Shown here in pieces: positions 219 through 23,134 of a stretch of 64,000 nt of DNA (position 1 is its first letter; every line of letters begins with the position of its first letter). The notes below the pieces were generated by a model that saw only the letters and a program-made list of their open reading frames with translations, ran no database searches and was not told the origin of the DNA. A program made the translations under genes and the position numbers. Where the stretch lies: IMG/VR virus record IMGVR_UViG_3300033068_001610, positions 1 through 64,000 of that record. One strand, written 5' to 3'. Source of the DNA: a virus (taxonomy: Duplodnaviria > Heunggongvirae > Uroviricota > Caudoviricetes).

Positions 219-220
219 AA

Positions 221-1546: not shown

Positions 1547-1592
1547 ATATAAAATATATTAAAAGCCCACCATTACAGTGGGCCTTTGATTA

Positions 1593-3023: not shown

Positions 3024-3028
3024 TTTAT

Positions 3029-3292: not shown

Positions 3293-3343
3293 AACTGAAA
3301 GTATTAAAAAGCTCTGCTATTTCTAACAGAGCTTGTTATTGTT

Positions 3344-4564
3344 TTATTTGTTTTTTAAATCAAGACCAAGATCTTTGGCAGCTTTCGCACTCATAAGTTC
3401 CATAAAATTGAAACCTGCATTTCCTGCAGATCCTCCTCCAGATACATATGTAGGAACAAGTGAACCTTCATAGTTAGCAAAAGCTTCAGCCCAAAATCTT
3501 TGTACTTTTTCATATGTAGCCAACTTTTGAGTTAAAGCTCCATCTGCTTGCATTACAAGACGTTTTTTAGCTGCAATACCTTCACCTTCCAAAATATCTT
3601 TTTGTTTGTTTAAATTGGCTGTTTGTACTGCTAAATTAGCTACATCTTTTGCAGCTTCAGCTTGAGTAACAAGTTTAGATTTAATAACTTCTTGTTCCCA
3701 TTTAGCTTTGGCAGCATTTGCTTCTCCTTGTTTAGCTGTAGTGATAGCATCTTGTTCAGCTCTTTTAGCATTAGCAATGGCAGTTTGAACAGACATTATA
3801 GCTTTTTGTTGACTTTGAATTTGAGCTTCTACTGTTTTATCATATCGAATATCATTAATAGAAATACTATATAAACGAATACCAAATTCTTCAATAGAAG
3901 ATTTTTCTTGTCTATAAGGATTACCTTTAATCATTACAATTTCTACTTTACTAACAGCTTTTTCAGTATTTGTTAATGCATCCACTTCACGTACAGATAT
4001 AGTTTTAGTTTTATATACTCCTTTAGAAGATTGATCTTCAATATAATATATAAGGTCATTTCTTTTTTCTGCATATGATTCTTTAGATGACATCAAAGGT
4101 CCTGTCATAAATATTGATTTAGATATATTAGTATTTACTAATTGTTCTTCAATATTTTCTTGATTTCTATAAGTACTATGAACTTTCTTCATTTTATTTT
4201 CATCTAAAGGAAGATCTATACGAATACTTCCTGATATCCAAGCATGACCACCATCATTAAATTTGACTGGCAAGCTTTTATCATATTCAGTGCCTATATA
4301 TTCTTTTTCTTTAGGTGCAAGAAAATTAATTTGACTAGAACGTTTGTAATGTGTTACTCTTCCAAGTCCTTGCCAAGTTGGCCCTGGTTCATACACCACT
4401 TTAAGATCTCCACTTAAAGATTGAATTACAAGAATTTCTCCTGCATCATTGTCTTCAATTGTATTAAATGATAAAACGACTGCAGCTACTAAAACTAAAA
4501 GTATTAAAGCATACTTTCTAATACCTTTAATCACTGAACTTGATTGATTTTCTTCTGTGTACAT
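3344..4564 (-). CDS. SPFH/band-7 (HflK/flotillin-like) membrane protein
   Basis: N-terminal TM helix YALILLVLVAAVVLSF, central SPFH-like core, C-terminal Ala/Gln/Lys-rich coiled coil (AKRAEQDAITTAKQGEANAAKAKWEQE...) typical of HflK/C and flotillins. 406 aa. Confidence 0.65.
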   Translation of the reverse strand: MYTEENQSSSVIKGIRKYALILLVLVAAVVLSFNTIEDNDAGEILVIQSLSGDLKVVYEPGPTWQGLGRVTHYKRSSQINFLAPKEKEYIGTEYDKSLPVKFNDGGHAWISGSIRIDLPLDENKMKKVHSTYRNQENIEEQLVNTNISKSIFMTGPLMSSKESYAEKRNDLIYYIEDQSSKGVYKTKTISVREVDALTNTEKAVSKVEIVMIKGNPYRQEKSSIEEFGIRLYSISINDIRYDKTVEAQIQSQQKAIMSVQTAIANAKRAEQDAITTAKQGEANAAKAKWEQEVIKSKLVTQAEAAKDVANLAVQTANLNKQKDILEGEGIAAKKRLVMQADGALTQKLATYEKVQRFWAEAFANYEGSLVPTYVSGGGSAGNAGFNFMELMSAKAAKDLGLDLKNK

Positions 4565-4791
4565 TATTTCTCGATGTTTTTGGTAATGTTATTTATTTTT
4601 TGTTGTGTTTTCTTAGTGGCACCTCTGATTGCTTGTTTTTTTTCTTTAAATTCTTTTGATTGTTTTTCCAAATCATCTAAAGATGATTCTGGTTTTCTTA
4701 AACGAAATATATCAGGAATAAGAATATAAAGTAAAACAAATAAAAAGAGCAGGACTAAGCCTGCTCTAATTAAAAACATTGCAGCTGTCAT
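4564..4791 (-). CDS. small membrane protein (N-terminal TM + charged coiled coil)
   Basis: 75 aa. TM AAMFLIRAGLVLLFLFVLLYILIP; ATG overlaps the start of the SPFH gene. Confidence 0.45.
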   Translation of the reverse strand: MTAAMFLIRAGLVLLFLFVLLYILIPDIFRLRKPESSLDDLEKQSKEFKEKKQAIRGATKKTQQKINNITKNIEK

Positions 4792-4795
4792 CTTG

Positions 4796-5086
4796 TTAGA
4801 ATCTTTCTGCTAAAATTCCTTCAGCAAAAGCAAGACCTTCTTCTAATGCTTCCACTTCTCTATAAGCAGAAAGTTCAGCATTTACACTGTAAGGAATGGC
4901 AGCTTTTGTTTTTGATAATGCTTGTCTAGCATTTGCTAGATCAAATTTAGTAGTGGCTATTGTCACTTCTAAGTTGGATTTTGCTTTTTGTACTTCTAAT
5001 GCTAACTCCTCTGCTTGTATATCCTTCTCTGATTTGGATATTAGGTCGCTGTATTTTACAGGAGTCTCTTTGGCTTTTGTGCTCAT
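4796..5086 (-). CDS. hypothetical coiled-coil protein
   Basis: 96-aa ORF with clean heptad character. Overlaps the 3' end of the upstream 385-aa ORF by 140 nt. Confidence 0.4.
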   Translation of the reverse strand: MSTKAKETPVKYSDLISKSEKDIQAEELALEVQKAKSNLEVTIATTKFDLANARQALSKTKAAIPYSVNAELSAYREVEALEEGLAFAEGILAERF

Positions 5087-6104
5087 CTTTTTTTAATTTT
5101 AAGGGATTATTTATTTGTTTTGGAAATTCATATTCTTGTGATAAATCAATTTCATCACAAGGGTTTGTAGGTCGCAGGGTTTTCCAATCTGGATGACCTA
5201 AAGGCAAAAAAGGTATTATTGTTTCAATACTAACTTCTTCAACAGAAGTTACTTGTTCAAATCTAATTGAATCGTGTTTACTCCAAAATTTACATTGATT
5301 AACATATCCATATTTATCTAAATAACCACGAATTCCTTCAATTTTACTGAATTTAACATAATGGGAAAGACTATCAAAATTTAATTTATACCATTTATCT
5401 ACAACCATATCTTTATAGCTCATTTGCTCAATGGGTGATTCACATATAAAAGGCATTAAATCTTCTAATTTGTATTCTTTTTTTCCAGAACCATTTGATA
5501 CAAACCAAAAAGAACTATCAGACCAAGCTATACCAATATCTTTTTTTGCAGGATGATCAATATTTTGTCTTGTATTTTTTAAATATTCTTGTAAATTGTT
5601 GTCTAAACTTCTACAAAATCCATTTGTTGGAAATCCTGATAATTTAAGTTGTGCTAAATATTCTTCCTTTGTAGCAATATCATATAAATGATCATTAGGA
5701 TCTGTACCAATTTCAGCAAAATTAAATTTTTCATCTAAAATGACAATTTTATTGACATAATTTGATTTTGGTATTCTATCAGAAACTAAATATATTTGAG
5801 ATGATGAAATATTAAAAAATGTAGATTGTCCTGTAATAATAGAATAAGGATTTACATTTTTAACATATTTTGGTTTTATTTGTTCTTTTCCAACTATTTC
5901 AGCAAAACTGCGAGTTTTATGATCGTATAAACGAATATCAGTACCAACTGTATTACCACAATAAATACTTTCACTATATCCATAATGAATATCATTTGAT
6001 GTTCTACTAACAGTAAGTGGTTTACCATTAGATGTACATCTTACAATAGTACCATCTGGATACATAGCTTTAGCTATTTCTAATCTTTTTTCTTTTTCAT
6101 CCAT
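4947..6104 (-). CDS. hypothetical protein
   Basis: 385-aa ORF. The C-terminal 45 aa are R/S-rich and overlap the next gene; possible frameshift or mis-end. Confidence 0.45.
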   Translation of the reverse strand: MDEKEKRLEIAKAMYPDGTIVRCTSNGKPLTVSRTSNDIHYGYSESIYCGNTVGTDIRLYDHKTRSFAEIVGKEQIKPKYVKNVNPYSIITGQSTFFNISSSQIYLVSDRIPKSNYVNKIVILDEKFNFAEIGTDPNDHLYDIATKEEYLAQLKLSGFPTNGFCRSLDNNLQEYLKNTRQNIDHPAKKDIGIAWSDSSFWFVSNGSGKKEYKLEDLMPFICESPIEQMSYKDMVVDKWYKLNFDSLSHYVKFSKIEGIRGYLDKYGYVNQCKFWSKHDSIRFEQVTSVEEVSIETIIPFLPLGHPDWKTLRPTNPCDEIDLSQEYEFPKQINNPLKLKKDEHKSQRDSCKIQRPNIQIREGYTSRGVSIRSTKSKIQLRSDNSHY

Positions 6105-6154
6105 AATTAAAAGATTTAAAAGGGCTTTATATTACTACAAAGCCCTATGATAAA

Positions 6155-6490
6155 TTACTCTTCTGCTGCTGGAAGAAAATCATCAGTGTTAATCAGATCA
6201 TCTTCTGACATTCCCAATTCAGACATCATTTGCATCATTTGTTCTGAGGCTGACATTCTTCCAATGATTGCATCTTTAACTGCTATAGCAGCTAAAATAA
6301 CAATTTCTTCATCAGAAAAATGTTTTAATACACCTTCTAAAATTACAGATGTAGAAAGAGGTTGTCCATCTTCAAATTCAGCTACAAGAGCTTCAGTTGA
6401 TTTTTGTAATGCGTCATTAATGTCTCCATTGAAACCAATAGCATCACTCAATTCTTCTTGAGTGTGGTCGAATTTTAAATTTGTGTTCAT
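6155..6490 (-). CDS. small acidic protein, paralog A of FDH/LSYNELL-like family
   Basis: N-terminus MNTNLKFDHTQEELSDAIGF aligns with the ORFs at 6683 and 8376; acidic C-terminus. Confidence 0.5.
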   Translation of the reverse strand: MNTNLKFDHTQEELSDAIGFNGDINDALQKSTEALVAEFEDGQPLSTSVILEGVLKHFSDEEIVILAAIAVKDAIIGRMSASEQMMQMMSELGMSEDDLINTDDFLPAAEE

Positions 6491-6508
6491 ATATTTATTA
6501 TTAAGGAT

Positions 6509-6679
6509 TTAAAAATTTTCTATGTAAAGAGAGCGAGCTCTTAAATTTGTTTGAGATATAATTCTAAAATTAGATTTATATAACACTTCAACAACATATC
6601 TTCTACATTGTTGTAATTTTGTAGGATTAGTTGATGCAACTAATATTCCTTTACTGATGTTAATGCGTGGTCTAGGCAT
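6509..6679 (-). CDS. hypothetical small protein (56 aa)
   Basis: ATG at 6679 sits 3 nt after the stop of the 6683 gene. Unlisted ORF MPRPRINISKGILVASTNPTKLQQCRRYVVEVLYKSNFRIISQTNLRARSLYIENF fills the only gap in a tightly packed operon. Confidence 0.3.
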   Translation of the reverse strand: MPRPRINISKGILVASTNPTKLQQCRRYVVEVLYKSNFRIISQTNLRARSLYIENF

Positions 6680-6682
6680 AAT

Positions 6683-6970
6683 TTATTTTTTATATTTATT
6701 AATTATACTTCTTAAGCCAGACAAAGGACTATTGTCTTCTTTTTGTCTGTCCATTATAGCTTCAATATAACCTAAACTAACGAATAATAATTCGTTATAA
6801 CTCAGTTCATTGGCAATTCTTTCAACTATTTTACTTTTGTGACGTTTGCCATTCATGGCATAATCAGTAGTAATACTAGCTAATTTACCATGCAATTCTT
6901 CTATCTGTGTATCTGGCATACCCATACATTCAGATAATCTTTCTCTTGTGTGATCAAAAACTAAACTCAT
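6683..6970 (-). CDS. small protein, paralog B of FDH/LSYNELL family
   Basis: MSLVFDHTRERLSECMGMP ... ANELSYNELLFVSLGYIEAI. Shares motifs with the 6155 and 8376 ORFs. Confidence 0.5.
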   Translation of the reverse strand: MSLVFDHTRERLSECMGMPDTQIEELHGKLASITTDYAMNGKRHKSKIVERIANELSYNELLFVSLGYIEAIMDRQKEDNSPLSGLRSIINKYKK

Positions 6971-6972
6971 AA

Positions 6973-7215
6973 TTAAGGAGTTGTTAAAATTATTCGTCCT
7001 ATTGTCAGGATGATTCCTGCGATAATACTACCAACTAAAAATCCCCTTCTAAAAGAGGATTTTAGTAATTGTTCACTTGCTTCAATTATTTCATTTTGAA
7101 GAGTGACAATTTTTTCTTGTGAATTAACTAATGATTTTAGATTAACTATTCTTTTTTCGTGAAGTGTGTTAATATCTTCTATGATTTTAACTACATCTAA
7201 GGGAGTTTTTTCCAT
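6973..7215 (-). CDS. tail-anchored coiled-coil membrane protein
   Basis: 80 aa; coiled coil then C-terminal TM FLVGSIIAGIILTIGRIIL. Confidence 0.45.
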   Translation of the reverse strand: MEKTPLDVVKIIEDINTLHEKRIVNLKSLVNSQEKIVTLQNEIIEASEQLLKSSFRRGFLVGSIIAGIILTIGRIILTTP

Positions 7216-7368
7216 TTAATAAATATAAAAATCGTCTTCAGTTAATTCAATGTTGTCTTCTTCACAAATATTTTGTATGGCTACATTAATTTGTGATAGT
7301 GTTGCATCTTCAATATCTATTTCAAATATTGATTTTACCCATTTTGATAATCTATTATAATCACTCAT
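7216..7368 (-). CDS. hypothetical small acidic protein (50 aa)
   Basis: Unlisted ORF MSDYNRLSKWVKSIFEIDIEDATLSQINVAIQNICEEDNIELTEDDFYIY. Its ATG overlaps the upstream stop (AATGAGTGA) and its TAA abuts the next start. Confidence 0.3.
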   Translation of the reverse strand: MSDYNRLSKWVKSIFEIDIEDATLSQINVAIQNICEEDNIELTEDDFYIY

Positions 7369-7645
7369 TGTCATCATCTGTTTTACCAATCAATGACATT
7401 GGGTCATTAATAGCTGCTTCCAATTCATCAAGAAAGGATATGCCATGTTTATCAATAAGTTCATGAATTAATTTTTCTGATAAATCAGAATTATCTCCTC
7501 CTTCCACTTCAAGAAGTAATAATAATTTCATTGCACCTTCTTTTGGAATAGTTGTAATAAATTGAGGTTTCTTTTTTAAAATAGTTATTATCATTTGAAG
7601 ATAAACTTCCATTCTAATATGACGTTCGTCGTTATTTGAGCTCAT
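7361..7645 (-). CDS. ABC-type ATPase C-terminal fragment (Walker B / D-loop region)
   Basis: KLLLLLEVEGGDNSDLSEKLIHELI matches the ABC Walker B + D-loop pattern (LLLLDEPTxGLD...ELI). ATG lies 5 nt after the stop of the 7651 ORF. Confidence 0.45.
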   Translation of the reverse strand: MSSNNDERHIRMEVYLQMIITILKKKPQFITTIPKEGAMKLLLLLEVEGGDNSDLSEKLIHELIDKHGISFLDELEAAINDPMSLIGKTDDDNE

Positions 7646-7650
7646 TTTTG

Positions 7651-8388
7651 TTAAGTATTTGTATTAGTTATTAAACACATATTGAGAATTGCTTGATGTC
7701 CTGCTCCTAATGATGTAGCTGATTTAATTGAACCATCTTTCATTGTAATATTAAAATCACAATCAAGTAAATCAACATTAATTTCAGCCATGTTTTTAAA
7801 AACATCATCATTATCAGAAATAGTATTCAAGCTTGATAATATTTTTTCATCAAATTTATATGGCATATTTGCTACTAATCCTTCAATAGTTTGAATATCA
7901 TATAATTTGAACATCTCAGATAATTTCATTATCTTTTCTTCATTTGAACCACCAAATGATTTTCTAATTTGTAGATACATTTTGATACCAGTAAATAGTC
8001 TAAATTGAGAAGACATATATATCACTTTAGTTGGAATTAAATTATCTATAGCATTAAATTGAATAAATGAACATTTACCTGTTTCATCTAATTCTATTTC
8101 AACACTGGCTCCTGAAGAATAAGTAAATTTTATTTCTCCAACAATAAAATTATCAAAACAATGTGAGAAAATTTCATCACATACTAGTTTTGAATCATGT
8201 TCATTGTCAAATATTCTAAAATTTATTACACTTGTTACAGCATAAACCATTACATTAATAAATGATTTACCTACACCATTCTTACCTGTTAACATAGTAA
8301 GAGCATTAACATTCATCTCCACTGCTTTAAAAGCAATTGGAGATGAAAGATTTAATGAAATTGTTTTAACACTACCTAATCCTTGCAT
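7651..8388 (-). CDS. ABC/AAA_21-type ATPase N-terminal part (Walker A + signature-like motif), ends before Walker B
   Basis: RecF/SMC-like N-terminus ISLNLSSPIAFKAVEMNVNALTMLTGKNGVGKS. Ends SLGAGHQAILNMCLITNTNT*, an LSGGQ-like signature, with no Walker B. Confidence 0.55.
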   Translation of the reverse strand: MQGLGSVKTISLNLSSPIAFKAVEMNVNALTMLTGKNGVGKSFINVMVYAVTSVINFRIFDNEHDSKLVCDEIFSHCFDNFIVGEIKFTYSSGASVEIELDETGKCSFIQFNAIDNLIPTKVIYMSSQFRLFTGIKMYLQIRKSFGGSNEEKIMKLSEMFKLYDIQTIEGLVANMPYKFDEKILSSLNTISDNDDVFKNMAEINVDLLDCDFNITMKDGSIKSATSLGAGHQAILNMCLITNTNT

Positions 8389-8843
8389 GAGTTTAAATCA
8401 TCAAGGTTAGGCATATTTTTTTGCTTTAACATTTCTTGAAGTTTTTTTCTTTCTTCAGAATCAAAAGCAACAACTTTCATTGAAAGTCCTTTACCAATTG
8501 GAAATGCTCCTTGTTCAGATAATTCTGCTAAAGCATCTTCATCTAAATCTTTGATTTGTTTGATTTGAGATTCTAAATCTTCTAAATCACCACTTAATTT
8601 AGTACTTAAAGATTTAAGTTCTCCCTGAATTTTATCAACTACTGATATTGTTGCCAATAACAACAATTCATTATATGATAATTTATCAGCTAACATTTCA
8701 GCCAATTGTGTTTGTGCTAATTGTTTATGAACAACTTCATTAGCAATTTTGTTTAATCGATCTGCATGTTCTTGCATATCTTTTTCTGTGAAACCCATTC
8801 CTTTAATTAAGGAGCTTGAGTTATGATCAAAATTTGTTTTCAT
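8376..8843 (-). CDS. small protein, paralog C of FDH/LSYNELL family (longer, coiled-coil C-terminus)
   Basis: MKTNFDHNSSSLIKGMGF ... ADKLSYNELLLLATISVVDKI. Stop overlaps the start of the ATPase gene. Confidence 0.5.
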   Translation of the reverse strand: MKTNFDHNSSSLIKGMGFTEKDMQEHADRLNKIANEVVHKQLAQTQLAEMLADKLSYNELLLLATISVVDKIQGELKSLSTKLSGDLEDLESQIKQIKDLDEDALAELSEQGAFPIGKGLSMKVVAFDSEERKKLQEMLKQKNMPNLDDLNSCKD

Positions 8844-8854
8844 TATTTATTGTT

Positions 8855-9103
8855 TTAAGGGAGTTTATTTAATAAGTATGTTCTGGTTTCAAATTGATAC
8901 CAATACACACCATTTGGCATTTTAATAACACATCTATTTGCTATCCCAAGGATGCAACTAAATTGAACTTTCATAACTGTCCTAACCCAAGAATTATCCA
9001 ACACTGCAACAGGTTCAAATTCTTCAGTATCTATCCAAACTGGATAAGATAAAGAAGAGTGCATTATATCACCCTTCTTTTCATTGATTACATCAACAGC
9101 CAT
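8855..9103 (-). CDS. hypothetical protein
   Basis: 82-aa ORF in packed operon. Confidence 0.4.
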   Translation of the reverse strand: MAVDVINEKKGDIMHSSLSYPVWIDTEEFEPVAVLDNSWVRTVMKVQFSCILGIANRCVIKMPNGVYWYQFETRTYLLNKLP

Positions 9104-9105
9104 AA

Positions 9106-9348
9106 TTAATATGTATCAAGTTTATATCCAAGAGCTACAAGTTCTTCAGATTTATAAAATCTATCTAATTCAATTTTTGGGTCTTCAGAAAAATCATCAA
9201 TTTCATAAGCTCGTATATCATCAAACTTTGGAACTAATTTTAATTCTAATATTTTAGCAGTTGCTTCTTCTGAATTACTAGCTTCAACAACACACACTCC
9301 TTGATTCTTCCCTTGATAGGAAAATGAAAACCAATATGTTTTTTTCAT
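9106..9348 (-). CDS. hypothetical protein
   Basis: 80-aa ORF in packed operon. Confidence 0.4.
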   Translation of the reverse strand: MKKTYWFSFSYQGKNQGVCVVEASNSEEATAKILELKLVPKFDDIRAYEIDDFSEDPKIELDRFYKSEELVALGYKLDTY

Positions 9349-9359
9349 AATGTTATGTA

Positions 9360-9641
9360 TTAATAGATTTCATAATCTTCTTCTGGTTTAACAACTAATT
9401 CAAATGCATCTTCATACACTTGAATTCTATCACCTTTATGATAAGTAGAATAATTCATATTATTCATAACCACACCTTTTTGTACACTTACATGCATAAG
9501 CTTTTTAGTATAACTAGGACTAAGATCAGGATTTATAACAACTAATTCTTCAACATCTTTTAGTTGCATATAATTACTTTGTTTTTTTCCTACTATTGGC
9601 TTAATGATGTCTCCTTTTTTAAATTTAGGGATATTTGCCAT
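9360..9641 (-). CDS. hypothetical protein
   Basis: 93-aa ORF; start overlaps upstream stop. Confidence 0.4.
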   Translation of the reverse strand: MANIPKFKKGDIIKPIVGKKQSNYMQLKDVEELVVINPDLSPSYTKKLMHVSVQKGVVMNNMNYSTYHKGDRIQVYEDAFELVVKPEEDYEIY

Positions 9642-10114
9642 TAGTCCTCATTTAAAAGTTCACTAATTTTAGCCAAATCATTAGCCAATTTCATCTCTTG
9701 AGATAAATTAGCTTCTAATGTAGCTTTTACGCTTCTCAATTTGTCAAGTTCTTTTTTATGACTGATTTCAGCAATTTTAAGAACTATAACATCACGCCAA
9801 GCTTGAGGAGAATGTCCTTCAATAATAAGTACAGGTTTTTTAATACCTTCAGGAAGATATTTATCTGCAGCATTATTATAAGATTCTTGTTTACCATCAA
9901 TAGATGCACAAGCTTGTAATAGCTTCATTACATCATTAATGTTAGCAATTGGTCCAAATCCTGGTAATCCTGTAGTAATAACAGGTACAGTTGAATCATT
10001 TTTACTTAATTCTTTAATTTTAGAATTAACTGTTTCTAATAAAGCAGGAATATCTGCTTGTGTGAACTTTGTTTGTGTGCTTACAGCTACACTTTCTGGT
10101 GCTTTTGGTTCCAT
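9641..10114 (-). CDS. hypothetical protein
   Basis: 157-aa ORF. Confidence 0.45.
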   Translation of the reverse strand: MEPKAPESVAVSTQTKFTQADIPALLETVNSKIKELSKNDSTVPVITTGLPGFGPIANINDVMKLLQACASIDGKQESYNNAADKYLPEGIKKPVLIIEGHSPQAWRDVIVLKIAEISHKKELDKLRSVKATLEANLSQEMKLANDLAKISELLNED

Positions 10115-10139
10115 TTGTTTTAAGGGATTTGATTTATAA

Positions 10140-10397
10140 TTATTCTATTGTAATATACTGTTTGTATTGTTTTCCTGTTTTTTTGGAAGTTTTAACAATA
10201 AAAAATCTTCCTTTAGATGTAACATAAACAGGATAGTTTACATCTTTGATTGTAATGACATCACCAGTCAATCTAGGTTGTGCAACTGGTGTAGTCAATG
10301 AGACTAACTGACCACTACTATTTCTAGTGTAAGTGGTTTGAGCTGATATAGATAGACTAAATAAGCCTAATGCTATAAGAATAAATGTTTTTTTCAT
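10140..10397 (-). CDS. small secreted protein (Bacteroidetes-type signal peptide)
   Basis: MKKTFILIALGLFSLSISAQ then a beta-rich 65-aa mature part. No Cys after the signal, so not a lipoprotein. Confidence 0.5.
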   Translation of the reverse strand: MKKTFILIALGLFSLSISAQTTYTRNSSGQLVSLTTPVAQPRLTGDVITIKDVNYPVYVTSKGRFFIVKTSKKTGKQYKQYITIE

Positions 10398-10804
10398 GTG
10401 TGTATAAATTCAATTGTTCTAAACAATAATTGACGAGGAAATCCATTTCCCATTGGTAATCCATTAGGAACAGCACCATTTAATATGTTTCTAGCATAAT
10501 AATGACATTGTCCAAATGATGGATAACGAGGAAAATCTTTGACAATAATATCAATATATTCTCCTTTAAAAGACAAACTTGGTAGACTGTGTGAACCACT
10601 TGCATGATTAAATGCTTTAGATAGCTCAATAGTATATTTAAATTTTTTCTGATTCGATTTGTGAAAGCACAATCCACCAAATTTCATGTCTTTTGAAACT
10701 AATGTAATCCCAGATATTGTTATATCATTAATATAACTTAATACAGGATTCATAGTTTTATCTTTATAGATACGAAGGATGAAATTAGTCCTCATCCTTC
10801 TCAT
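10394..10804 (-). CDS. hypothetical protein (true start probably internal Met MNPVLSY)
   Basis: 136-aa ORF. The N-terminal 17 aa overlap the 10785 ORF. Confidence 0.4.
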   Translation of the reverse strand: MRRMRTNFILRIYKDKTMNPVLSYINDITISGITLVSKDMKFGGLCFHKSNQKKFKYTIELSKAFNHASGSHSLPSLSFKGEYIDIIVKDFPRYPSFGQCHYYARNILNGAVPNGLPMGNGFPRQLLFRTIEFIHT

Positions 10805-10982
10805 CTATTTTAATTGCTATAAATAAACAACAATTAAATACAAGAAATTGTATAAACCAAATCATTGGTGTATATCTATCAATTTCTAAAGCTCTTCCAT
10901 ATGTAATCATAGCTTCCATAAACAAGGCAAGCAATAATAACATTGATGTTCTTCCTATTAATATGATTATATCTCTTATCAT
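10785..10982 (-). CDS. small 2-TM membrane protein with acidic C-terminus (holin-like topology)
   Basis: Two hydrophobic helices, then EKDED tail; 65 aa. Confidence 0.4.
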   Translation of the reverse strand: MIRDIIILIGRTSMLLLLALFMEAMITYGRALEIDRYTPMIWFIQFLVFNCCLFIAIKIDEKDED

Positions 10983-10986
10983 TTTG

Positions 10987-11199
10987 TTATGAACTTTGTA
11001 AATAAATTGTACATCCTTCTAATCTATTATTTTTTATAGCCCAATCAACATCTATTACAGAACAGTTATATATTTCACCATTATGTTCAATATCAAAATT
11101 GCCTAAACCTTTTACAGGTACTGAAGGTAAATAAATTACTAATTTATCTAATTCAGGAACTCCATCCATATTTGCGAGCATACATTTAATTAAACTCAT
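10987..11199 (-). CDS. hypothetical protein
   Basis: 70-aa ORF; ATG overlaps the stop of the small membrane ORF (ATGA). Confidence 0.4.
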   Translation of the reverse strand: MSLIKCMLANMDGVPELDKLVIYLPSVPVKGLGNFDIEHNGEIYNCSVIDVDWAIKNNRLEGCTIYLQSS

Positions 11200-11360
11200 T
11201 TTTTCCCAAGTTTATAGTTAATGTATATCAAGGATGCTATAAGCATATCAATAATAACAATAAATGCCCAACCTGATGATTTAGCATCAGATTGAACACC
11301 AATGTATGTAAAGCCAATTATGTATAAAATACATAATGTATAGAATATTTTATTTTTCAT
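11196..11360 (-). CDS. small 2-TM membrane protein (54 aa)
   Basis: Unlisted ORF MKNKIFYTLCILYIIGFTYIGVQSDAKSSGWAFIVIIDMLIASLIYINYKLGKK. Translationally coupled (ATGA) to the 10987 gene. Confidence 0.4.
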   Translation of the reverse strand: MKNKIFYTLCILYIIGFTYIGVQSDAKSSGWAFIVIIDMLIASLIYINYKLGKK

Positions 11361-11372
11361 AGTTTTATTTAT

Positions 11373-11609
11373 TTAATCACACCAACTTCTACTACATCCA
11401 GGACAAGATATAATATGAGAGGAAGAAGATAACTCTAATGCTTTATCTTCTCCATATCTCTCAACTAATATTTCTCCTAATGTTTGAAGTGTTCCATAAT
11501 TATTTCTATCTCTATTCCAACCATATGAATGGTTACAAGATCTACTAGCAAACATTGGTAGATTATTATCTTCACAATATTTAGACTGATTTATATAATG
11601 TATATCCAT
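11373..11609 (-). CDS. Cys-rich small protein
   Basis: 78 aa with CxxxxxC...CxxC...CPGCSRSWC. Confidence 0.4.
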   Translation of the reverse strand: MDIHYINQSKYCEDNNLPMFASRSCNHSYGWNRDRNNYGTLQTLGEILVERYGEDKALELSSSSHIISCPGCSRSWCD

Positions 11610-11613
11610 AATA

Positions 11614-11868
11614 TTATGTATTAAAATATGTTATTGGATTTTGACCTTTCAATATCATTGATTTAAACAAACTTATAGCATCTAAAAAATCATTTTCAGT
11701 ATCAGCAGATAAATAAACACCATTAGTATCATTTCCTTCAATAATCCATTCAACTGCTTCTAATTGTTTATTAATAATAAGTAAACAATCAGAACTAATT
11801 GCAATGTAATCTTTAAACCCATCATATTGTACGTTGGGTTTAATTACTGTAAGAGCAAGTGTTTCCAT
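11614..11868 (-). CDS. hypothetical protein
   Basis: 84-aa ORF. Confidence 0.4.
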   Translation of the reverse strand: METLALTVIKPNVQYDGFKDYIAISSDCLLIINKQLEAVEWIIEGNDTNGVYLSADTENDFLDAISLFKSMILKGQNPITYFNT

Positions 11869-11874
11869 AATTAT

Positions 11875-12183
11875 TTAATTATAATTATTTATTCTTTTCC
11901 ACAATCTCTCAACAAATGTTGTATTACCTTTAGCTTCCACTTGAGCTAAGTATTCAGGAAGTTTTGATGTTCCACATAAATGCCAAGATTGATGTAATAA
12001 TCTATTAGGAAGTATTAATTCCCTAACATCTCCTTTCAAATCAAGCCAATCATCATATAATACAAAAGCTTTATCCATAGGAATAGATATTTCTCCACTA
12101 CAAGACCAAGATTCTAATAGTCCAGTAAAATATTCATTCAAATCTTTAATCATATGTTCTCTAGTAATAGTAAATGTTGCCAT
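11875..12183 (-). CDS. hypothetical protein
   Basis: 102-aa ORF; first gene of the packed leftward operon after a 350-bp non-coding gap. Confidence 0.45.
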   Translation of the reverse strand: MATFTITREHMIKDLNEYFTGLLESWSCSGEISIPMDKAFVLYDDWLDLKGDVRELILPNRLLHQSWHLCGTSKLPEYLAQVEAKGNTTFVERLWKRINNYN

Positions 12184-12494
12184 AATGCTATATTATTTAT
12201 GTTGTTAATGTGTTTTTGTGTATTTGTTTTAGGAGATTTATTGCTTTGAGAGTCTCCACACTCCCTTTCCAACCTATTCACATCATCTAAAATATTAGAA
12301 GATTATCAATAAAACGTGATTTTCATTGAAGAATAGTTATAACGCTCGTCGTAGAAAGTTTTAATTTCTGAGAATAATGCAATAAAGAGAATAATGAGCC
12401 CTGATTCTCACATATCAAGGCCCATTTTCCCTTCAAAAAACAAATTCACACATTATACATTCTACTGGTTTCTATGTCACCACCCAATTTCAAA

Positions 12495-12544
12495 GCGTTT
12501 TCAACCCACCCTATATATAGGGAAAAAAGAGCTTATGCTCTTTT
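12495..12544 (-). terminator. hairpin (AAAAGAGC-AUAA-GCUCUUUU, stop codon in loop) + U-tract, followed by CCCTATATATAGGG palindrome
   Basis: Inverted repeat 12525-12544 directly at the stop of the 12533-13015 gene; perfect 14-nt palindrome 12509-12522. Confidence 0.35.
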
Positions 12545-13015
12545 CTCCCATTCAAATTTGGTAGCAACTTTAGGCGTAGCCTTAAGCTTGGTATCAGATT
12601 TGATTTTAGTTGCTGACATATTGTCTGCAACGTATTCCTCGCCAAGATAAAGAGCGAGATCAAGAATTGGCTCGTCTTTATCGTCGAAGAGGATTTCACC
12701 TCGACGATTTCGTCGTGGTGTCCACTCGCCAACAACGTTAGTTGTTAAGAGTTGGTTCATAAGTTGAGTGTACTCAGCTTGTGAACTTGCACCACGAATG
12801 GCGTCAGACATTTCTTGTGTGCACAAGAGCTTGAATTCTTCTTCAGAAGAATTAAATGCTCTTATAAGCAATCGAACTTCGTCTTTCTCGAAGTTGCTAT
12901 TGCTCCAAAGTTCGACAGAACCTTTGTCGCCTAATAAGGCGTTAAGAACACCAAGCTTGGTTGTTCTTGTAGTAACGTTTACGTTACTTTGAAATTTAAC
13001 GATAGGTAATTTCAT
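12533..13015 (-). CDS. hypothetical protein, GC-rich island gene (start at internal Met MKLPIV)
   Basis: 160 aa. Clearly higher GC (~42%) and CGT/TCG/CGA codons unlike neighbours. The upstream 52 codons of the listed ORF (MIFWKIKKNFFF...) are read-through of the AT-rich control region. Confidence 0.5.
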   Translation of the reverse strand: MKLPIVKFQSNVNVTTRTTKLGVLNALLGDKGSVELWSNSNFEKDEVRLLIRAFNSSEEEFKLLCTQEMSDAIRGASSQAEYTQLMNQLLTTNVVGEWTPRRNRRGEILFDDKDEPILDLALYLGEEYVADNMSATKIKSDTKLKATPKVATKFEWEKRA

Positions 13016-13392
13016 AATAATTAAATTTAATTTATTAAATTTGATGTGGGGGATATCCCCACTTTTTAATTTTGTGTGGGGTTTTGTATTGGAAGTGGAC
13101 TTAATCAGCAGACATATAATCCTTTTCCTAATTTTGAAAAAAAAATTTTTTTTAATTTTCCAGAAAATCAAGGGTTTAGCTTCAGCGATAAAAAAAATAT
13201 TTTTCTGGCCCAGAAAAAGTTTCTACCTTTGGTGGGTGGGTGGGTTTGTTCTTAATGTATTTACCAACTTTTCTTTCTTCCTTTATATAGAAAATACAGA
13301 TAATGTAGGAATATTTGAGTATAATATAGCAATTGAATTAAAAAAAATATTGTTAATTCATTTTATGTTTATATCTTTGTACAAACTAAATT
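13016..13392. promoter_or_regulatory. divergent control region / candidate origin
   Basis: GGGGATATCCCC palindrome (13048-13059). TGTGGGG direct repeats (13044, 13074). A9T8 palindrome (13137-13153). TTTTCTGGCCCAGAAAA palindrome (13201-13217) with an extra CCAGAAAA half-site (13160-13167). G4 motif GGTGGGTGGGTGGG (13231-13244). Confidence 0.5.
13350..13379 (+). promoter_or_regulatory. Bacteroidetes-type promoter (TTG - 19 nt - TATCTTTG) for the rightward operon
   Basis: TTG at 13350-13352 and TAnnTTTG match at 13372-13379; ATG of first gene at 13393. Confidence 0.35.
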
Positions 13393-13755
13393 ATGGAACC
13401 AGTGATAATTCAGAAATTAAAACTGTCCTCAGAGGATAAGTATAAACAGGCTGAGAAATACTATGCTGTTCTTTCAGCTATTAATAATTTACATTTGACA
13501 GAGCGAGAACTTCAGCTCATTGCTTTTACAGCTATTCATGGTAATATGTCATATGCTTATATTAGGGAAGAATTTTGTGCTAAATATAAGACTACCAATC
13601 CTACGATTAATAATATTATTTCTAAGTTGAAAAAAATGGGTGTCCTTGTTAAGGAGGCTGGAAAGATTAAGGTGAATCCTGTTATTGTTCTGGATTTTGA
13701 AAAAGAAATAAGGCTGGCAATAACATTAAACATCAAGGAAAATGAAGCCAGCTAG
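13393..13755 (+). CDS. putative DNA-binding/regulatory protein
   Basis: 120 aa. Helix-turn-helix-like LTERELQLIAF... and winged-helix-like KLKKMGVLVKEAGKIKVNP. Confidence 0.4.
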   Translation: MEPVIIQKLKLSSEDKYKQAEKYYAVLSAINNLHLTERELQLIAFTAIHGNMSYAYIREEFCAKYKTTNPTINNIISKLKKMGVLVKEAGKIKVNPVIVLDFEKEIRLAITLNIKENEAS

Positions 13756-14092
13756 TATGACATTGAAGGAATATTTACAGAAGAGACTATCAGTCTCTTT
13801 AGTTGTTCCTGAAAGAATTATTGATTCAGTGATAACACATCAGTTTGATAGTGCCAATGATGCTCTTAATACTAACAAGAGTATTGAAATCTCTGGATTT
13901 GGAAAGTTTTATTTTAATGAGAAGAGAGCTGTCAAGTTGATGGATAAATATTTGAGCCAAAAGGAAGTTTTTACAAGAATTCTTTTGGATGAAACTATAT
14001 CTCCTCAAAGAAAGAGAGGAATGGAAATGAAATTGGAACAGAATGCTGTTAATATAAAAATGTTAAAACCAAAAATAAATGGATCTGTCTAA
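13742..14092 (+). CDS. HU/IHF-like DNA-binding protein
   Basis: TLKEYLQKRL...IIDSVITHQFDSANDALNTNKSIEISGFGKFYFNEKRA aligns to the HU helix1-helix2 and beta-arm start (..V.L.GFG.F.V..R.AR). Confidence 0.5.
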   Translation: MKPASMTLKEYLQKRLSVSLVVPERIIDSVITHQFDSANDALNTNKSIEISGFGKFYFNEKRAVKLMDKYLSQKEVFTRILLDETISPQRKRGMEMKLEQNAVNIKMLKPKINGSV

Positions 14093-14369
14093 GATATATG
14101 AAGGATGGAAAAACAATTATTTTCCTCCAGAAGAATTAAAAGAAGTGATAGCTTCAGCACAGGGATTTCGTTTAGAGATTTGTAAAACATGCCCTGAACA
14201 TTCAGCGAATAAAAAGGAAGCTTCTATAAGATGGGATGATCATTGTACAAATTGTGGATGCACCCTGTCTGCCAAAACAGCTTGTTTAACTTGTGAGTGT
14301 CCATTAAAAAAATGGGTAGCAGTGTTGACAGATGAACAACAAAAAGAAATTTTAAATCCAAAGAGATGA
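14079..14369 (+). CDS. Cys-rich putative zinc-binding protein
   Basis: CKTCPEH...HCTNCGC...CLTCEC; 96 aa. Confidence 0.45.
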   Translation: MDLSKIYEGWKNNYFPPEELKEVIASAQGFRLEICKTCPEHSANKKEASIRWDDHCTNCGCTLSAKTACLTCECPLKKWVAVLTDEQQKEILNPKR

Positions 14370-14632
14370 AAAATAAATTAAACGTTAATACATTGAGAAA
14401 GATTCCTCTCAAAGTGTTTATAGATACACTGATTGATATATACAATAGTGGAGTGGATTATATTGATATTGTTGGTAAAAATAGTCCTACTAACAAGAAG
14501 GATATTATCAATATTAGGGTGAGACCAGAATATAAAACACAGGATATTGTTGAATATAATTATTATGATGGTGAGGATGAGGATGTTGAAGAGAAACCTT
14601 TCTCTGATAAAGACATTTCAGATTTAATATAA
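14366..14632 (+). CDS. hypothetical protein (acidic C-terminus)
   Basis: 88 aa; overlaps upstream stop. Confidence 0.45.
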   Translation: MKNKLNVNTLRKIPLKVFIDTLIDIYNSGVDYIDIVGKNSPTNKKDIINIRVRPEYKTQDIVEYNYYDGEDEDVEEKPFSDKDISDLI

Positions 14633-14920
14633 ATGAAGATGAATAAACCAAACTACCCTAGTAAGATTCTAAAAGTTTTAGAACAACTAAAAAGAGATTT
14701 TCCTCATTGTAATTTAGGAAGACATTTAGCAACAGCTCTTGATGAACAAGATTTGTGGAGCCTTTCAGATAAGGACATGTTTAATTATTTAGATGAATAT
14801 GCTTCAGAGTTGTCAATGGACAAGCCACATGAAGATGAGGAGTTGGATAATATTATAAAGGGTGGAATGAATTTAACCTCCCTCATCTATGATGATGAAG
14901 ATGAGGACGAACAAGAATAA
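14633..14920 (+). CDS. hypothetical acidic protein
   Basis: 95 aa, DDEDEDEQE tail. Confidence 0.45.
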   Translation: MKMNKPNYPSKILKVLEQLKRDFPHCNLGRHLATALDEQDLWSLSDKDMFNYLDEYASELSMDKPHEDEELDNIIKGGMNLTSLIYDDEDEDEQE

Positions 14921-14922
14921 AA

Positions 14923-15255
14923 ATGGCAGTAACAAAAACTACATATGTAAATGCAGAACTTGATTGGGCTGAGACACAATTAACCAGCTGGAAAAATTAT
15001 GTTGATGCAAATCCTTTACATGAAATGAAGGATAGAGTTGAATATAAGGAGACTAGGGCAGGAGGAGTAATGCCAATGATTGTGGCTACAATTGAAGCTC
15101 AAGGAAAATTTGTTCAAGAGACAATGAAAAACTATTTGGCTCTTCTTGAACAAGTTGAAAAGCTCAGGGAAAAAGAAGAGAATAAAAAAGTTGCTGTGAG
15201 GGGGGATGTTCAACTAGGAAGCATGGCTGATGAGTTTTTAACAAGAAGAAAATAA
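14923..15255 (+). CDS. hypothetical protein, possible small terminase subunit by position
   Basis: 110 aa, immediately upstream of TerL and coupled to it (stop 2 nt before the TerL ATG). Positional evidence only. Confidence 0.3.
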   Translation: MAVTKTTYVNAELDWAETQLTSWKNYVDANPLHEMKDRVEYKETRAGGVMPMIVATIEAQGKFVQETMKNYLALLEQVEKLREKEENKKVAVRGDVQLGSMADEFLTRRK

Positions 15256-15256
15256 C

Positions 15257-17281
15257 ATGAAATTACTTCACGTAGACTATAAAGATTGGTTTATAAACCA
15301 AAAAAGAATTCCTGATGAGAGTTCAGAGGAGTATAAATCCTTCTTTAATTTTCATAAGGAAATTTGCATTAATGGATGTATGATGGATGATGTTTACATT
15401 AATCCATTTCTTTATTGGCATTTAAACTTCTGGAATACTGAGGTGGATATTATAGATGATTATGGGAGAATTAATCAAAAGTATGCTAACCCTTTGCTTA
15501 GAGATAATGAATGGTTGGTTACTAATGAAATAGATAGGGCACATAAAGAAAAGAAAGGGCTTGTTATTCTTGGGATTAGACGTTTTGCCAAGTCAGTGAT
15601 AGAAGCTAGTTATATTGGACAAGGAGCTACATTTGATGAAAACTCACAGAATGTTATTGCAGGATTGAATAGTCCTGATATTAAATTAATTACAGATAAG
15701 ATTGACAAGGGATTAAACTTCCTTCCTAAAGCATGGAGATGGCAAAGAGTTGAAGACAACTGGAAAAGTCAAGTGACATTAGGAATTAAAACCAAGGCAG
15801 GAGAGAGAATCCCATTCTCTCAGATTCTTATACGTAACTTAGATGGGGGTGCCAATGAAGAAGCTATTGCAGGTACCAAACCTAGAAGGTTGATTATTGA
15901 CGAAATTGGTAAAGGAAGTTTTATTAGAGGACTTCAAGCTGCTATTCCTGGATTTACAACACCATATGGTTGGGGATGTTCTCCAATCTTGACAGGAACT
16001 GGTGGTGACATGAAAATGTTCATGGATGCCAAGAGTCTTATGTTTGATGTAGAGAATTTTAACTTCCTTGAATATCAAAATGCAAAAGATGAGAAAAGAA
16101 TACATGGATTATTCATCTCTCATAAATATAGAATGGAAGCCAAAGAGGAATCTTCTCTAGGAGCTTTCCTTGAAAAACCTGAAGGTTCTTCTCTTTACCA
16201 GATTCCAATGTTGGTTGGAAATGAAGAACTTGCCACAGAAATCACAAATGGAAATTTAGAAAGGCTTAAAAAAGCAGGAGATAGAGTTGCCTATTTAAAA
16301 GAGAAAATGTATTATCCACAAGAGGTGGATGATATTTTCTTGAATGAAGATACAAACATATTTGATATAGAAGGAGCTAAACGTCAGAAAGCCAGATTGT
16401 TAGCAGCTGAAAGAACAGGGACTCCTGTTATTTTATATGATGATGGTGATGGTGTTAAACACCAGTTTACAGACAAACTACCAATATCAAATTTTCCATT
16501 AAAAGCTATTGACAACAAAGAAGCACCAGTAGTAATATATGAGTTTCCAATGGAAGCTCCACCATGGGGACTTTATGTTGCAGGGATTGACCCTTATAGA
16601 CAAGGTAAATCTGCATATAGTTCTTCCTTGGGATCTGTATACATTTATAAAAGAATGCACAGTATTACAGGAGAGAAATACCAAGATATGTTTGTGGCAA
16701 GTTATTGTGCAAGACCAGATAAAAAAGAAACATGGGAAGAACAAGCAAGATATCTTATCAAATATTACAACGCAAGAGCTCTCTGCGAAAATGATGAGAT
16801 TTCGTTCATCGACTACATGATATCAAAAGGAGATGCTCATTATCTCGAGCGTCAACCAGATTGGTTAAAAGAAATTGTTCCAAACACCACAGTAAGAAGG
16901 GATTATGGAATCCACAGGTCATCTGACAAGATTAGGGATTTCTTACATGGCTGTCTGAAGAAGTATACAGAGGAAGTTTTACTAGTGGACAAAGATGATA
17001 ATGGTGAAGTTATACAACAGACTAAAGGAATGGTGAAGATATTTGATCCTGTTCTATTAGAGGAGATGATACAATATAATGAACTAGGTAACTTTGACAG
17101 GATTATAGCAGCTGAACTTGCTATAGCATTAGCTATGAAGATGGATCCTATAATGGGTAAGATTGGAGCTAAAGATGATATTAGGTTAACAGCAATGCAT
17201 AAGAAAAGTAAAAACAAACTCTTCACAGAATCTAGAGGAATGTTTAATAATAAACAAACAAGAAATAAATTATTTACATAA
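15257..17281 (+). CDS. terL: terminase large subunit
   Basis: Deviant Walker A LGIRRFAKSVIE, Walker B RRLIIDEIG. C-terminal nuclease-like region with conserved acidic residues (VAGIDPYRQGKSAYSS...). 674 aa. Confidence 0.85.
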   Translation: MKLLHVDYKDWFINQKRIPDESSEEYKSFFNFHKEICINGCMMDDVYINPFLYWHLNFWNTEVDIIDDYGRINQKYANPLLRDNEWLVTNEIDRAHKEKKGLVILGIRRFAKSVIEASYIGQGATFDENSQNVIAGLNSPDIKLITDKIDKGLNFLPKAWRWQRVEDNWKSQVTLGIKTKAGERIPFSQILIRNLDGGANEEAIAGTKPRRLIIDEIGKGSFIRGLQAAIPGFTTPYGWGCSPILTGTGGDMKMFMDAKSLMFDVENFNFLEYQNAKDEKRIHGLFISHKYRMEAKEESSLGAFLEKPEGSSLYQIPMLVGNEELATEITNGNLERLKKAGDRVAYLKEKMYYPQEVDDIFLNEDTNIFDIEGAKRQKARLLAAERTGTPVILYDDGDGVKHQFTDKLPISNFPLKAIDNKEAPVVIYEFPMEAPPWGLYVAGIDPYRQGKSAYSSSLGSVYIYKRMHSITGEKYQDMFVASYCARPDKKETWEEQARYLIKYYNARALCENDEISFIDYMISKGDAHYLERQPDWLKEIVPNTTVRRDYGIHRSSDKIRDFLHGCLKKYTEEVLLVDKDDNGEVIQQTKGMVKIFDPVLLEEMIQYNELGNFDRIIAAELAIALAMKMDPIMGKIGAKDDIRLTAMHKKSKNKLFTESRGMFNNKQTRNKLFT

Positions 17282-19878: not shown

Positions 19879-19896
19879 AGTCCTCCTAGGAGGACT
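19879..19896 (+). other. perfect 18-nt palindrome AGTCCTCCTAGGAGGACT followed by A6
   Basis: Lies 6 nt after the portal stop codon. Confidence 0.5.
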
Positions 19897-20014
19897 AAAA
19901 AATATTAATGCTATATTATTTACAAAATCAAATCAATTAGAACATTAAAGCTTTGATAATTCAAACTCTTGTTATAATTTTACAGTAATAAAACCAACAT
20001 AAATACAACTACAT

Positions 20015-23028: not shown

Positions 23029-23101
23029 TGCGTGGTAGAGCAGTTGGTAGCTCGTGAGACTCATAATCTCAAGGCCATGGGTTCGAGTCCCATTCACGCT
23101 A
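23029..23101 (+). tRNA. tRNA with CAU anticodon (Met, or Ile2 if lysidine-modified)
   Basis: Cloverleaf read by eye: acceptor TGCGTGG/TCACGCT, U8, D-arm GAGC-AGTTGGTA-GCTC, anticodon arm TGAGA-CTCATAA-TCTCA, variable AGGCC, T-arm ATGGG-TTCGAGT-CCCAT, discriminator A. U1:U72 mismatch. Confidence 0.8.
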
Positions 23102-23134
23102 CTAAGTATTAAACCAATTATTAAACAACTACAT

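Follow-up and report, generated by a model that had tools for sequence, protein, structure and literature searches.

Our analysis revealed a conserved control region between two divergent sets of genes on a 64,000-nucleotide (nt) stretch of DNA from a tailed virus (Caudoviricetes; IMG/VR record IMGVR_UViG_3300033068_001610, positions 1 to 64,000), which we refer to as the window. The region comprises the 377 intergenic bases 13016-13392, between a leftward start codon (ATG) at 13015 and a rightward start at 13393. On balance it is probably the conserved early/late transcriptional control region of an uncultured crAss-like phage, in which a guanine tract (G-tract) may tune a promoter and adjoining elements may serve as protein sites. 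It is a control region of a known type, and what is unusual about it is the G-tract at the predicted transcription start site. Judged by comparison with related viral sequences, this near-invariant, single-copy G-tract, a hairpin module of fixed length and a box of the sequence ATAATATAGC are real conserved elements.

Conserved organization of the divergent region

All sizeable open reading frames (ORFs) lie on the minus strand to the left of 13 kb and on the plus strand to the right of it. An earlier note on this DNA had described a divergent control region at this place, and the description was borne out, transcription diverging from 13016-13392. For comparison we used 80 related IMG/VR loci obtained by a terminase-based scan (80-88% protein identity), among which 68 distinct sequences were available for comparisons of the upstream region. 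The product of the first rightward gene, R1, is 47-66% identical in the 80 loci and the HU-like protein encoded next to it 33-56%. Positions 13214-13250, and with them the G-tract, were 91-100% identical among relatives, the adjoining rightward coding DNA aligning at 65-70%.

Nearly all of the relatives shared one plan. Read from the left, it begins with the leftward ATG and a spacer of 30-45 nt, then a G3-5/loop/C3-5 hairpin, an A/T-rich stretch, a G4-5 block and TTGnTATGGAGTGG-like G-blocks, followed by ACACACA, sometimes another G-block, TTTTG-A7-9-T3-8-(G)A6-8, TTTGG and about 21 variable bases. The right half holds TAnnTTTG, the G-tract and 60-280 variable bases, usually with ATAATATAGC and often with a second TAnnTTTG proximal to the start codon. 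The earlier note had named a lack of conservation in related phages as grounds for giving up its proposal of an operator or origin; the relatives have retained the hairpin and the G-blocks as well as the A/T tract and the G-run. The features of the region and its flanks are as follows, with the strand given where one applies:

12533-13015, minus strand: first leftward gene, 160 amino acids (aa), ATG at 13015, no family match
13046-13062: G/C hairpin or palindrome GTGGGGGATATCCCCAC, core 13049-13060, conserved
13046-13145, plus strand: left module, from the hairpin to the first A-tract, about 91 nt, near gap-free in alignment
13075-13100, plus strand: second and third G-blocks, TGTGGGG then ATTGGAAGTGGAC, part of the fixed-length left module
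13132-13153: TTTTG-A9-T8 tract, conserved as A7-9 / T3-8 tracts
13159-13174, plus strand: TCCAGAAAATCAAGGG, containing the 'half-site' CCAGAAAA (13160), kept in the three closest relatives only
13190-13203, plus strand: second A-tract (A8) then TTTT, the TTTT at the -33 position of promoter P1, 20 nt before its -7 box
13200-13218: perfect palindrome of 9+1+9, TTTTTCTGG-C-CCAGAAAAA, which takes up the P1 spacer, in this phage only
13224-13231, plus strand: P1 -7 box TACCTTTG, TAnnTTTG pattern, conserved
13231-13244, plus strand: G-tract GGTGGGTGGGTGGG, non-template strand, where transcription from P1 is predicted to start, conserved
13300-13333, plus strand: direct repeats ATAATGTAGGAAT and ATAATATAGCAAT, 21 nt apart, the second holding ATAATATAGC (13321-13330)
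13334-13360: inverted repeat TGAATTAA-N11-TTAATTCA, overlapping the P2 -33 element, kept in the closest relatives
13350-13379, plus strand: promoter P2, TTG (13350-13352), 19 nt, TATCTTTG (13372-13379), 13 nt before the ATG at 13393
13393-13755, plus strand: R1, first rightward gene, 120-aa DNA-binding protein of winged-helix fold according to structure prediction
13742-14092, plus strand: HU/IHF-like DNA-binding protein, passing the cut-off of Pfam Bac_DNA_binding

All motifs named in the earlier note were present in the sequence. Two of its coordinates were off by one base: GGGGATATCCCC lies at 13049-13060 rather than 13048-13059 and forms, with its flanks, GTGGGGGATATCCCCAC at 13046-13062, and the two copies of TGTGGGG start at 13045 and 13075 rather than 13044 and 13074. 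All others were exact (A9T8 at 13137-13153, TTTTCTGGCCCAGAAAA at 13201-13217, CCAGAAAA also at 13160, GGTGGGTGGGTGGG at 13231-13244).

It is conservation, not single-window statistics, that lifts these elements above chance. Chance was estimated from 200 first-order Markov simulations of the window, which has a G+C content of 30%. A G-run of the GGTGGGTGGGTGGG type did not occur in any of the 200, and tracts of at least A8 followed by at least T7 were observed twice (one palindromic site, both strands counted) against 0.025 expected. A G4-N2-6-C4 hairpin, in turn, was seen at least once in 25 of the 200 simulations, so the hairpin taken alone is unremarkable. Perfect inverted repeats with arms of at least 8 numbered 14 in the window against 5 expected, which makes the palindrome one of about a dozen.

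Upstream promoter P1

The promoter P1, with A/T tracts close upstream and the G-run adjoining its -7 box, had been overlooked in the earlier note. With P1 recognized, most of the 'grammar' previously read as that of an origin or switch is explained as promoter anatomy, namely the A/T tracts, the gene-proximal promoter and the position of the G-tract. Comparison showed P1 to be a predicted family-wide upstream promoter of the Bacteroidota sigma-A pattern (TTTG-N21-TAnnTTTG). A TTTG stood exactly 21 nt upstream of the -7 box in most of the 68 distinct sequences, and an xxxxTTTG box followed by a G-run was present in 67 of them. Variation within the -7 box was confined to the nn positions (CC, TC, AT, CA, TA), save for three distant variants lacking the TA. 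In a position-wise consensus the A-tracts, the -33 element, the -7 box and the G-tract were conserved and the spacer was variable. In Flavobacterium and Bacteroides the conserved -7 box is TAnnTTTG (PMC7641319). P1 resembles the Bacteroidota sigma-A promoters (-33 TTTG / -7 TAnnTTTG) in sequence, in spacing and in which positions vary, and differs in its G-tract, the promoter variant with this tract occurring at chance level in cellular genomes.

Between A9T8 and the second A-tract, this phage and those closest to it carry an insertion of about 40 nt. The A/T tracts, A9T8 included, may act as an UP-like or bent element upstream of P1, a reading of the A9T8 and A8 tracts that draws on what is generally known of UP elements. 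A strict scan of the window for TTTG-N17-21-TAnnTTTG gave 6 matches against 4.6 expected and missed both P1 and P2, because their -33 elements read TTTT or TTG. By reading, no leftward -7 box (CAAAnnTA) was found in 13016-13140. Short contigs, tried as a proxy for transcript 5' ends, were uninformative.

Some relatives carry P1 in reduced surroundings. In one of them (L041, about 5300-5470) P1 lies 18 nt before the R1 start codon, a placement like that in phi14:2, without a G-tract, ATAATATAGC box or second promoter, and in three others (L033, L036, L037) P1 and a G-run lie about 71 nt upstream and there is no P2-like box. The occurrence of P1 without P2 in these four loci argues that P1 serves the rightward operon, and the G-tract, the leader and P2 appear to behave as an added module. 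L041 is also a natural 'deletion' control for the function of the G-tract.

Transcript 5' ends have been mapped in Cellulophaga phage phi14:2, in which middle and late transcription is rifampicin-sensitive (Drobysheva et al., bioRxiv 10.1101/2020.03.07.982082). Four phi14:2 middle genes are preceded by promoters (P070, P075, P108, P110) made up of an A-tract, (C/T)TTG, N20 and TAnnTTTG, and direct comparison with these four promoters showed in our region the same tripartite make-up of crAss-like middle/late promoters: an A-rich block, (C/T)TTG, about 20 nt and TAnnTTTG(T). In phi14:2 such promoters stand upstream of packaging, IHF-like and structural genes, and P110 occupies the equivalent early/late divergence point. 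They differ in lacking a G-tract and in standing a few to about 20 nt before the start codon, whereas P1 in the phage described here is followed by a near-invariant G-tract, then by 60-280 nt of leader and, as a rule, another promoter.

Start-site G-tract

The G-tract abuts the -7 box of P1 and would thus span roughly -3 to +10 of the promoter. Its variants among relatives are GGTGGGTGGGTGGG, GGCGGGTGGGTGGG, GGCTGGGTGGGTGGG, GGGGTGGTGGTTGGG, G5-6TGGGTGGG and G7-8(A/T)2-4G7-8; the changes fall at non-G positions, and every variant keeps at least four usable G-tracts. The earlier note had called the element a G-quadruplex motif. The G-run is real and conserved, but it does not follow the canonical rule of four G3+ tracts separated by N1-7: the tracts of the main variant are G2, G3, G3 and G3, for which ViennaRNA allowed only a two-layer quadruplex (-4.8 kcal/mol). 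The G7-8 variants of distant relatives satisfy the canonical rule, whereas the variant of the window does not. By a relaxed definition the tract may be counted as a quadruplex element, since the potential is kept and changes fall in loop positions, a pattern that a protein reading the G residues would produce as well.

The G-tract is single-copy in the window. Among the 2.9 million viral contigs of IMG/VR the pattern TANNTTTGGNGGGTGGGTGGG matched 79 stretches, once each, and 73 of these had an R1 homologue at most 400 nt downstream; three were cut off by the end of the stretch and the remaining three belong to an unrelated phage (L115, L129, L159) with no protein match to the window. In 596 Gb (gigabases) of cellular genomes the pattern was found 7 times, all in unrelated taxa. 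This is chance level, and we therefore discarded the idea of a host motif: the G-tract promoter is not a host promoter subtype found by that search. By these counts the G-tract is essentially confined to this phage group. In the unrelated phage (L115 about 9435-9920, likewise L129 and L159) a divergent region holds TAtaTTTG-GGGGGTGGGTGGG between two GGGACCCC palindromes, with A-tracts upstream. The motif is about 115 nt away from the start of a terminase-like gene, which was identified by reading its translation.

Gene-proximal promoter P2 and the ATAATATAGC box

The earlier note was right in placing a TTG-N19-TATCTTTG promoter before the first rightward gene. This promoter, P2, is shown by comparison to be a predicted gene-proximal promoter of the Bacteroidota sigma-A type. 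It had a strict match in 34 of the 68 distinct relatives, the -7 box alone being present in more, and it was identical in the three closest relatives; the stretch from ATAATATAGC to the ATG, which holds P2, is almost invariant among the four closest genomes.

The 10-mer ATAATATAGC itself is invariant at two conserved places in most relatives (L001-L080). In the window these are 13321-13330 (plus strand), upstream of R1, and 19910-19919 (minus strand), just after the portal gene, so that the two copies are inverted and about 6.6 kb apart, each followed within a few tens of bases by a sigma-A-like promoter. One more copy, at 12187-12196 (minus strand) directly before an ATG at 12183, was found in this window only. 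The box could be the site of a regulator or a compact promoter. After the portal gene there is also a hairpin, GTCCTCCTAGGAGGAC (19880-19895), whose T-run, in the window as in relatives, is found only on the side of the minus strand. It has the look of a terminator for that strand, placed some 15 nt downstream of the minus-strand ATAATATAGC copy, which would make for a very short antisense transcription unit.

Hairpin and G-block module

The hairpin is the sole G4-N-C4 element of the 64-kb window and is kept in relatives as G3-5, 3-5 nt and C3-5, about 30-45 nt from the leftward ATG. Over the left module, 44 distinct relatives aligned almost gap-free across about 106 columns, and the invariant positions were mostly G. 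The G-blocks start at alignment columns of about 9, 40, 57 and 83, and TGTGGGG occurs twice, 30 nt apart. The iteron-like repeats of the earlier note were not recovered, since the G-blocks are irregularly spaced and unequal in sequence and do not form the regularly spaced direct repeats of an iteron-type origin. No covarying structure was detected in the left module by RNAalifold (-3.7 kcal/mol, four near-invariant C:G pairs, a single change on both sides), and an Rfam scan of 11500-14000 gave chance-level matches only. The hairpin had been flagged as an intrinsic terminator in the scan of the window and was rejected as such, the relatives (CCCCAACC...) having no T-run after the stem. Likewise, a mechanical ORF at 13041-13439 was rejected as coding, close relatives differing by indels of 1 nt and 13 nt. 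Most likely, proteins bind to the hairpin/G-block module and to the ATAATATAGC box.

A similar hairpin is found in phi14:2, whose 100-kb genome contains exactly one G4-N-C4 hairpin, followed by TGGGGG and TTTTGA8. The resemblance is suggestive only, because the terminases of the two phages are 24% identical. In the divergent region of crAss001 the left module was absent and nothing similar was found.

Palindrome in the P1 spacer

The earlier note had proposed the palindrome and its additional half-site as an operator. The palindrome TTTTCTGGCCCAGAAAA (13201-13217) extends to 9+1+9 at 13200-13218 and is improbable for its spacer (0 of 500 shuffles). It is, however, missing from the three closest relatives, namely L170 (with an R1 that is 90% identical), L171 and L125, and the proposal of a conserved operator fell with it. 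Dyads are not a general feature of the P1 spacer (median shuffle p 0.44 across 58 distinct spacers), and one sub-group of spacers has 6-nt arms around GAA. As far as the sequences tell, the palindrome appears to be strain-specific or due to chance.

Gene content, relatives and host

The region is flanked by variable leftward genes on one side and by a conserved rightward operon on the other. The operon encodes, in this order, R1 (120 aa), the HU-like protein, four small proteins, the large terminase and the portal, and farther along the major head protein and giant virion proteins, so that five small genes stand between R1 and the terminase gene. The structure of R1 was predicted from an alignment of database homologues and is a winged helix (mean predicted local distance difference test score, pLDDT, 77.6). 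Against solved structures it gave weak matches (E of 0.013 or more), mostly to MarR- and Zur-type regulators and to the N-terminal domain of T4 MotA; no solved structure matched below an E of 0.01. The fold is that of a generic winged helix. Against viral models there was a full-length match (TM score 0.71) to a 116-aa 'chromosome replication initiation protein'. Sub-threshold Pfam matches were to HTH_Mga in 27 of 28 members and also to Phage_rep_O, RepL and MCM_C, and sub-threshold PHROG matches were to O-like initiators, replication initiation proteins and DnaD-like loaders (4 to 8 of 29 members). R1 thus matches regulators as well as O-like, RepL and DnaD-like domains, all below family thresholds. 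A protein search with R1 found no match, and R1 matched no small-terminase family.

The gene layout of this phage is crAss-like, yet the phage is distant from the cultured representatives by sequence. Its terminase is 40% identical to that of Leptolyngbya phage Lbo-JY46, 31% to that of Cellulophaga phage phi4:1 and 24% to that of phi14:2, and a nucleotide search of deposited phages with 12000-16000 found no match. The host is probably a member of the Bacteroidota.

No homologue of the first leftward gene was found in the 80 terminase-defined relatives; in the two closest contigs genes of 161 and 160 aa occupy its position, a likeness of size and place only. The same holds for both leftward genes nearest the region, which have no detectable homologue in the 80 relatives despite terminases that are 80-88% identical, and the early-side DNA to the left of the hairpin (window 1-13015) shows almost no similarity among relatives. 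This points to a hypervariable leftward early region. Many metagenomic contigs break within it. Among the leftward genes there is a gap of 349 nt with raised G+C content and without a sizeable ORF (12184-12532), kept in its entirety in the closest relatives. About a dozen otherwise divergent relatives share part of it, 12293-12386, at 83-92% identity, and no Rfam family matched the gap. The early region of phi14:2 has been reported to be rich in non-coding RNAs.

On the rightward side a 4487-aa ORF (window 48409-61872) has at residue 3494 the sequence DFDID, known as the catalytic motif of the virion RNA polymerase of phi14:2 (bioRxiv 10.1101/2020.03.07.982082) and embedded here in a protein much larger than the virion RNA polymerase of crAss-like phages. 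A tRNA-Met gene (23029-23102) lies within the structural module and overlaps the mechanical GTG start of an ORF at 23054-23584.

Proposed function

In the interpretation that we favor, P1 and P2, both directed rightward, would feed the operon of the winged-helix protein, the HU-like protein, the terminase and the portal, and the leftward genes would, by analogy with phi14:2, be early genes read by an injected virion RNA polymerase. The G-tract would tune P1, and as the preferred mechanism we suggest that initiation is forced to occur with G inside a GC-rich melting region. After P1 has fired, a quadruplex or an R-loop might arise at the tract and restrict read-through into the operon or set its timing. 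The hairpin/G-block module and the ATAATATAGC box might be bound by R1, by the HU-like protein or by a factor of the host, which would bring about the switch from early to later transcription.

Several findings weigh against this interpretation. The -33 position of P1 reads TTTT at 20 nt in the window and its three closest relatives. Where the G-tract would lie with respect to +1 is derived from the usual distance to a -7 box. The main variant of the tract is a weak quadruplex former and not the top G4Hunter site of the window. A promoter needs no invariant 13-nt G-tract; an origin, a packaging site or the site of a specific protein would more typically be conserved as a strict single copy. 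The transcription program of phi14:2 transfers by analogy, given terminases that are only 24% identical, and the nearest deposited terminase, at 40%, is that of a cyanobacterial phage.

We therefore also considered that the G-tract together with the hairpin/G-block module might be more than an accessory of the promoter, namely the cis site of a genome-level process in a widespread environmental group of crAss-like phages, either a transcription-primed origin acting with R1 and the HU-like protein or a packaging start, which we judge unlikely though well worth weighing. As an origin, the G-rich P1 transcript across the G-tract would remain bound to the C-rich template as an R-loop, possibly stabilized by a quadruplex of the displaced strand, and prime the leading strand; the hairpin, G-blocks and A/T tracts would be the part for initiator binding and unwinding, with R1 as origin binder assisted by the HU-like protein. 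T4 oriF/oriG, ColE1 RNA II and the mitochondrial LSP-CSBII offer precedents, in which a promoter is directly followed by non-template G-clusters as it is here, and the variants G8AAG7 and G7ATAAG7 of distant relatives come close to CSBII. In T4, oriF and oriG consist of a middle promoter plus an unwinding element. The main variant of our G-tract, with G2, G3, G3 and G3, differs from these systems, and no context of RNase H or primer processing was identified. The cis elements are single-copy, strongly conserved and constrained in length, with A/T tracts adjoining, but the G-blocks are not iterons, and one relative (L041) does without the G-tract altogether. The functionally annotated weak matches of R1 are mostly replication-initiator DNA-binding domains (PHROG, Pfam), and its full-length fold match is to a viral protein labelled as a replication initiator. 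All of these matches are sub-threshold, however, the commonest in Pfam being HTH_Mga, and those to solved structures are ordinary transcription regulators. The genes of R1 and the HU-like protein sit in a packaging and structural operon and not in a replication module, and the 'replisome organizer' of phi14:2 is encoded elsewhere; to judge by SPP1 and lambda, such proteins often bind within their own gene or next to it. The cumulative GC skew, which the earlier note had proposed as a check, does have its minimum at about 13 kb and turns at the equivalent point of phi14:2, but in both phages this coincides with the switch of coding strand, exactly so in the window. Since gene orientation and skew are fully confounded, the skew does not distinguish replication from transcription and was uninformative. 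For the prototype crAssphage, origins have been predicted at the strand switch upstream of repL (PMC10983915). Taken together, we hold an origin at this place to be rather improbable.

Still less probable, in our estimation, is a packaging recognition site (pac/cos-like) or genome terminus, at which the terminase would recognize or cut the unique hairpin and/or the G-tract, with R1 as a small-terminase-like subunit and the HU-like protein and A-tracts bending the DNA as in lambda cosB or SPP1 pac. The likeness to those two sites is considerable: a unique site heading the terminase operon, a winged-helix binder, embedded promoters, an IHF/HU-type bending protein and bent A-tracts. A packaging site must occur in a single copy, as these elements do; the region stands at the head of the operon with the large terminase and the portal, genes for a winged-helix and an HU/IHF-like protein adjoin it, and the similar motif of L115, L129 and L159 lies about 115 nt from a terminase-like gene start. 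Among crAss-like phages, short terminal repeats (crAss001) and headful packaging from a pac site (crAss002) are both known (PMC8042965; PMC6235969). The difference from lambda and SPP1 is that R1 is not recognizably a small terminase, matching no family of these and being separated from the terminase by five small genes. Ends of IMG/VR contigs, which are a proxy, reach about double their expected frequency in the kilobase on the left, but they are scattered 196-1200 nt left of the hairpin without a common end sequence. Such scatter fits assembly breaks, since it is there that conserved DNA meets the hypervariable early genes. Full-length contigs, moreover, start at unrelated positions.

Least probable of all, we find, is that the hairpin/G-block module is an N4-like early promoter or entry signal for the virion RNA polymerase that drives the leftward genes. 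In its favor, all relatives have a short G/C stem with a 3-5 nt loop placed 30-45 nt ahead of the first leftward start codon, resembling the hairpin early promoters that serve early genes and a virion polymerase in phage N4; the first leftward gene has no host-type promoter, and the giant ORF has the DFDID motif. The sole hairpin of phi14:2 (G4-N5-C4) lies 68 nt upstream of its first early-side gene, and the phi14:2 enzyme transcribed denatured DNA in vitro, but the same study found no motif common to the sequences upstream of early transcripts (bioRxiv 10.1101/2020.03.07.982082). Unlike in N4 the polymerase family is unrelated and there is a single hairpin copy, although several early promoters per genome would be expected, and the stem shows nearly no informative covariation, G always being on the 5' side with one inner-pair change (L125).

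Significance

The switch from early to later transcription and the starts of replication and packaging are poorly known in crAss-like phages, as are the early-promoter signals of phi14:2. The region described here offers a concrete set of cis elements common to more than 100 environmental contigs, consisting of a near-consensus host-type promoter, a start-site G-tract and a unique hairpin module that is seemingly also present in the experimentally tractable phi14:2. If the G-tract does act through quadruplex or R-loop control of transcription or in the priming of replication, it would be a clear example from a bacterial virus of a mechanism known best in mitochondria and plasmids. If it does not, most of the striking motifs are nonetheless accounted for as ordinary promoter anatomy.

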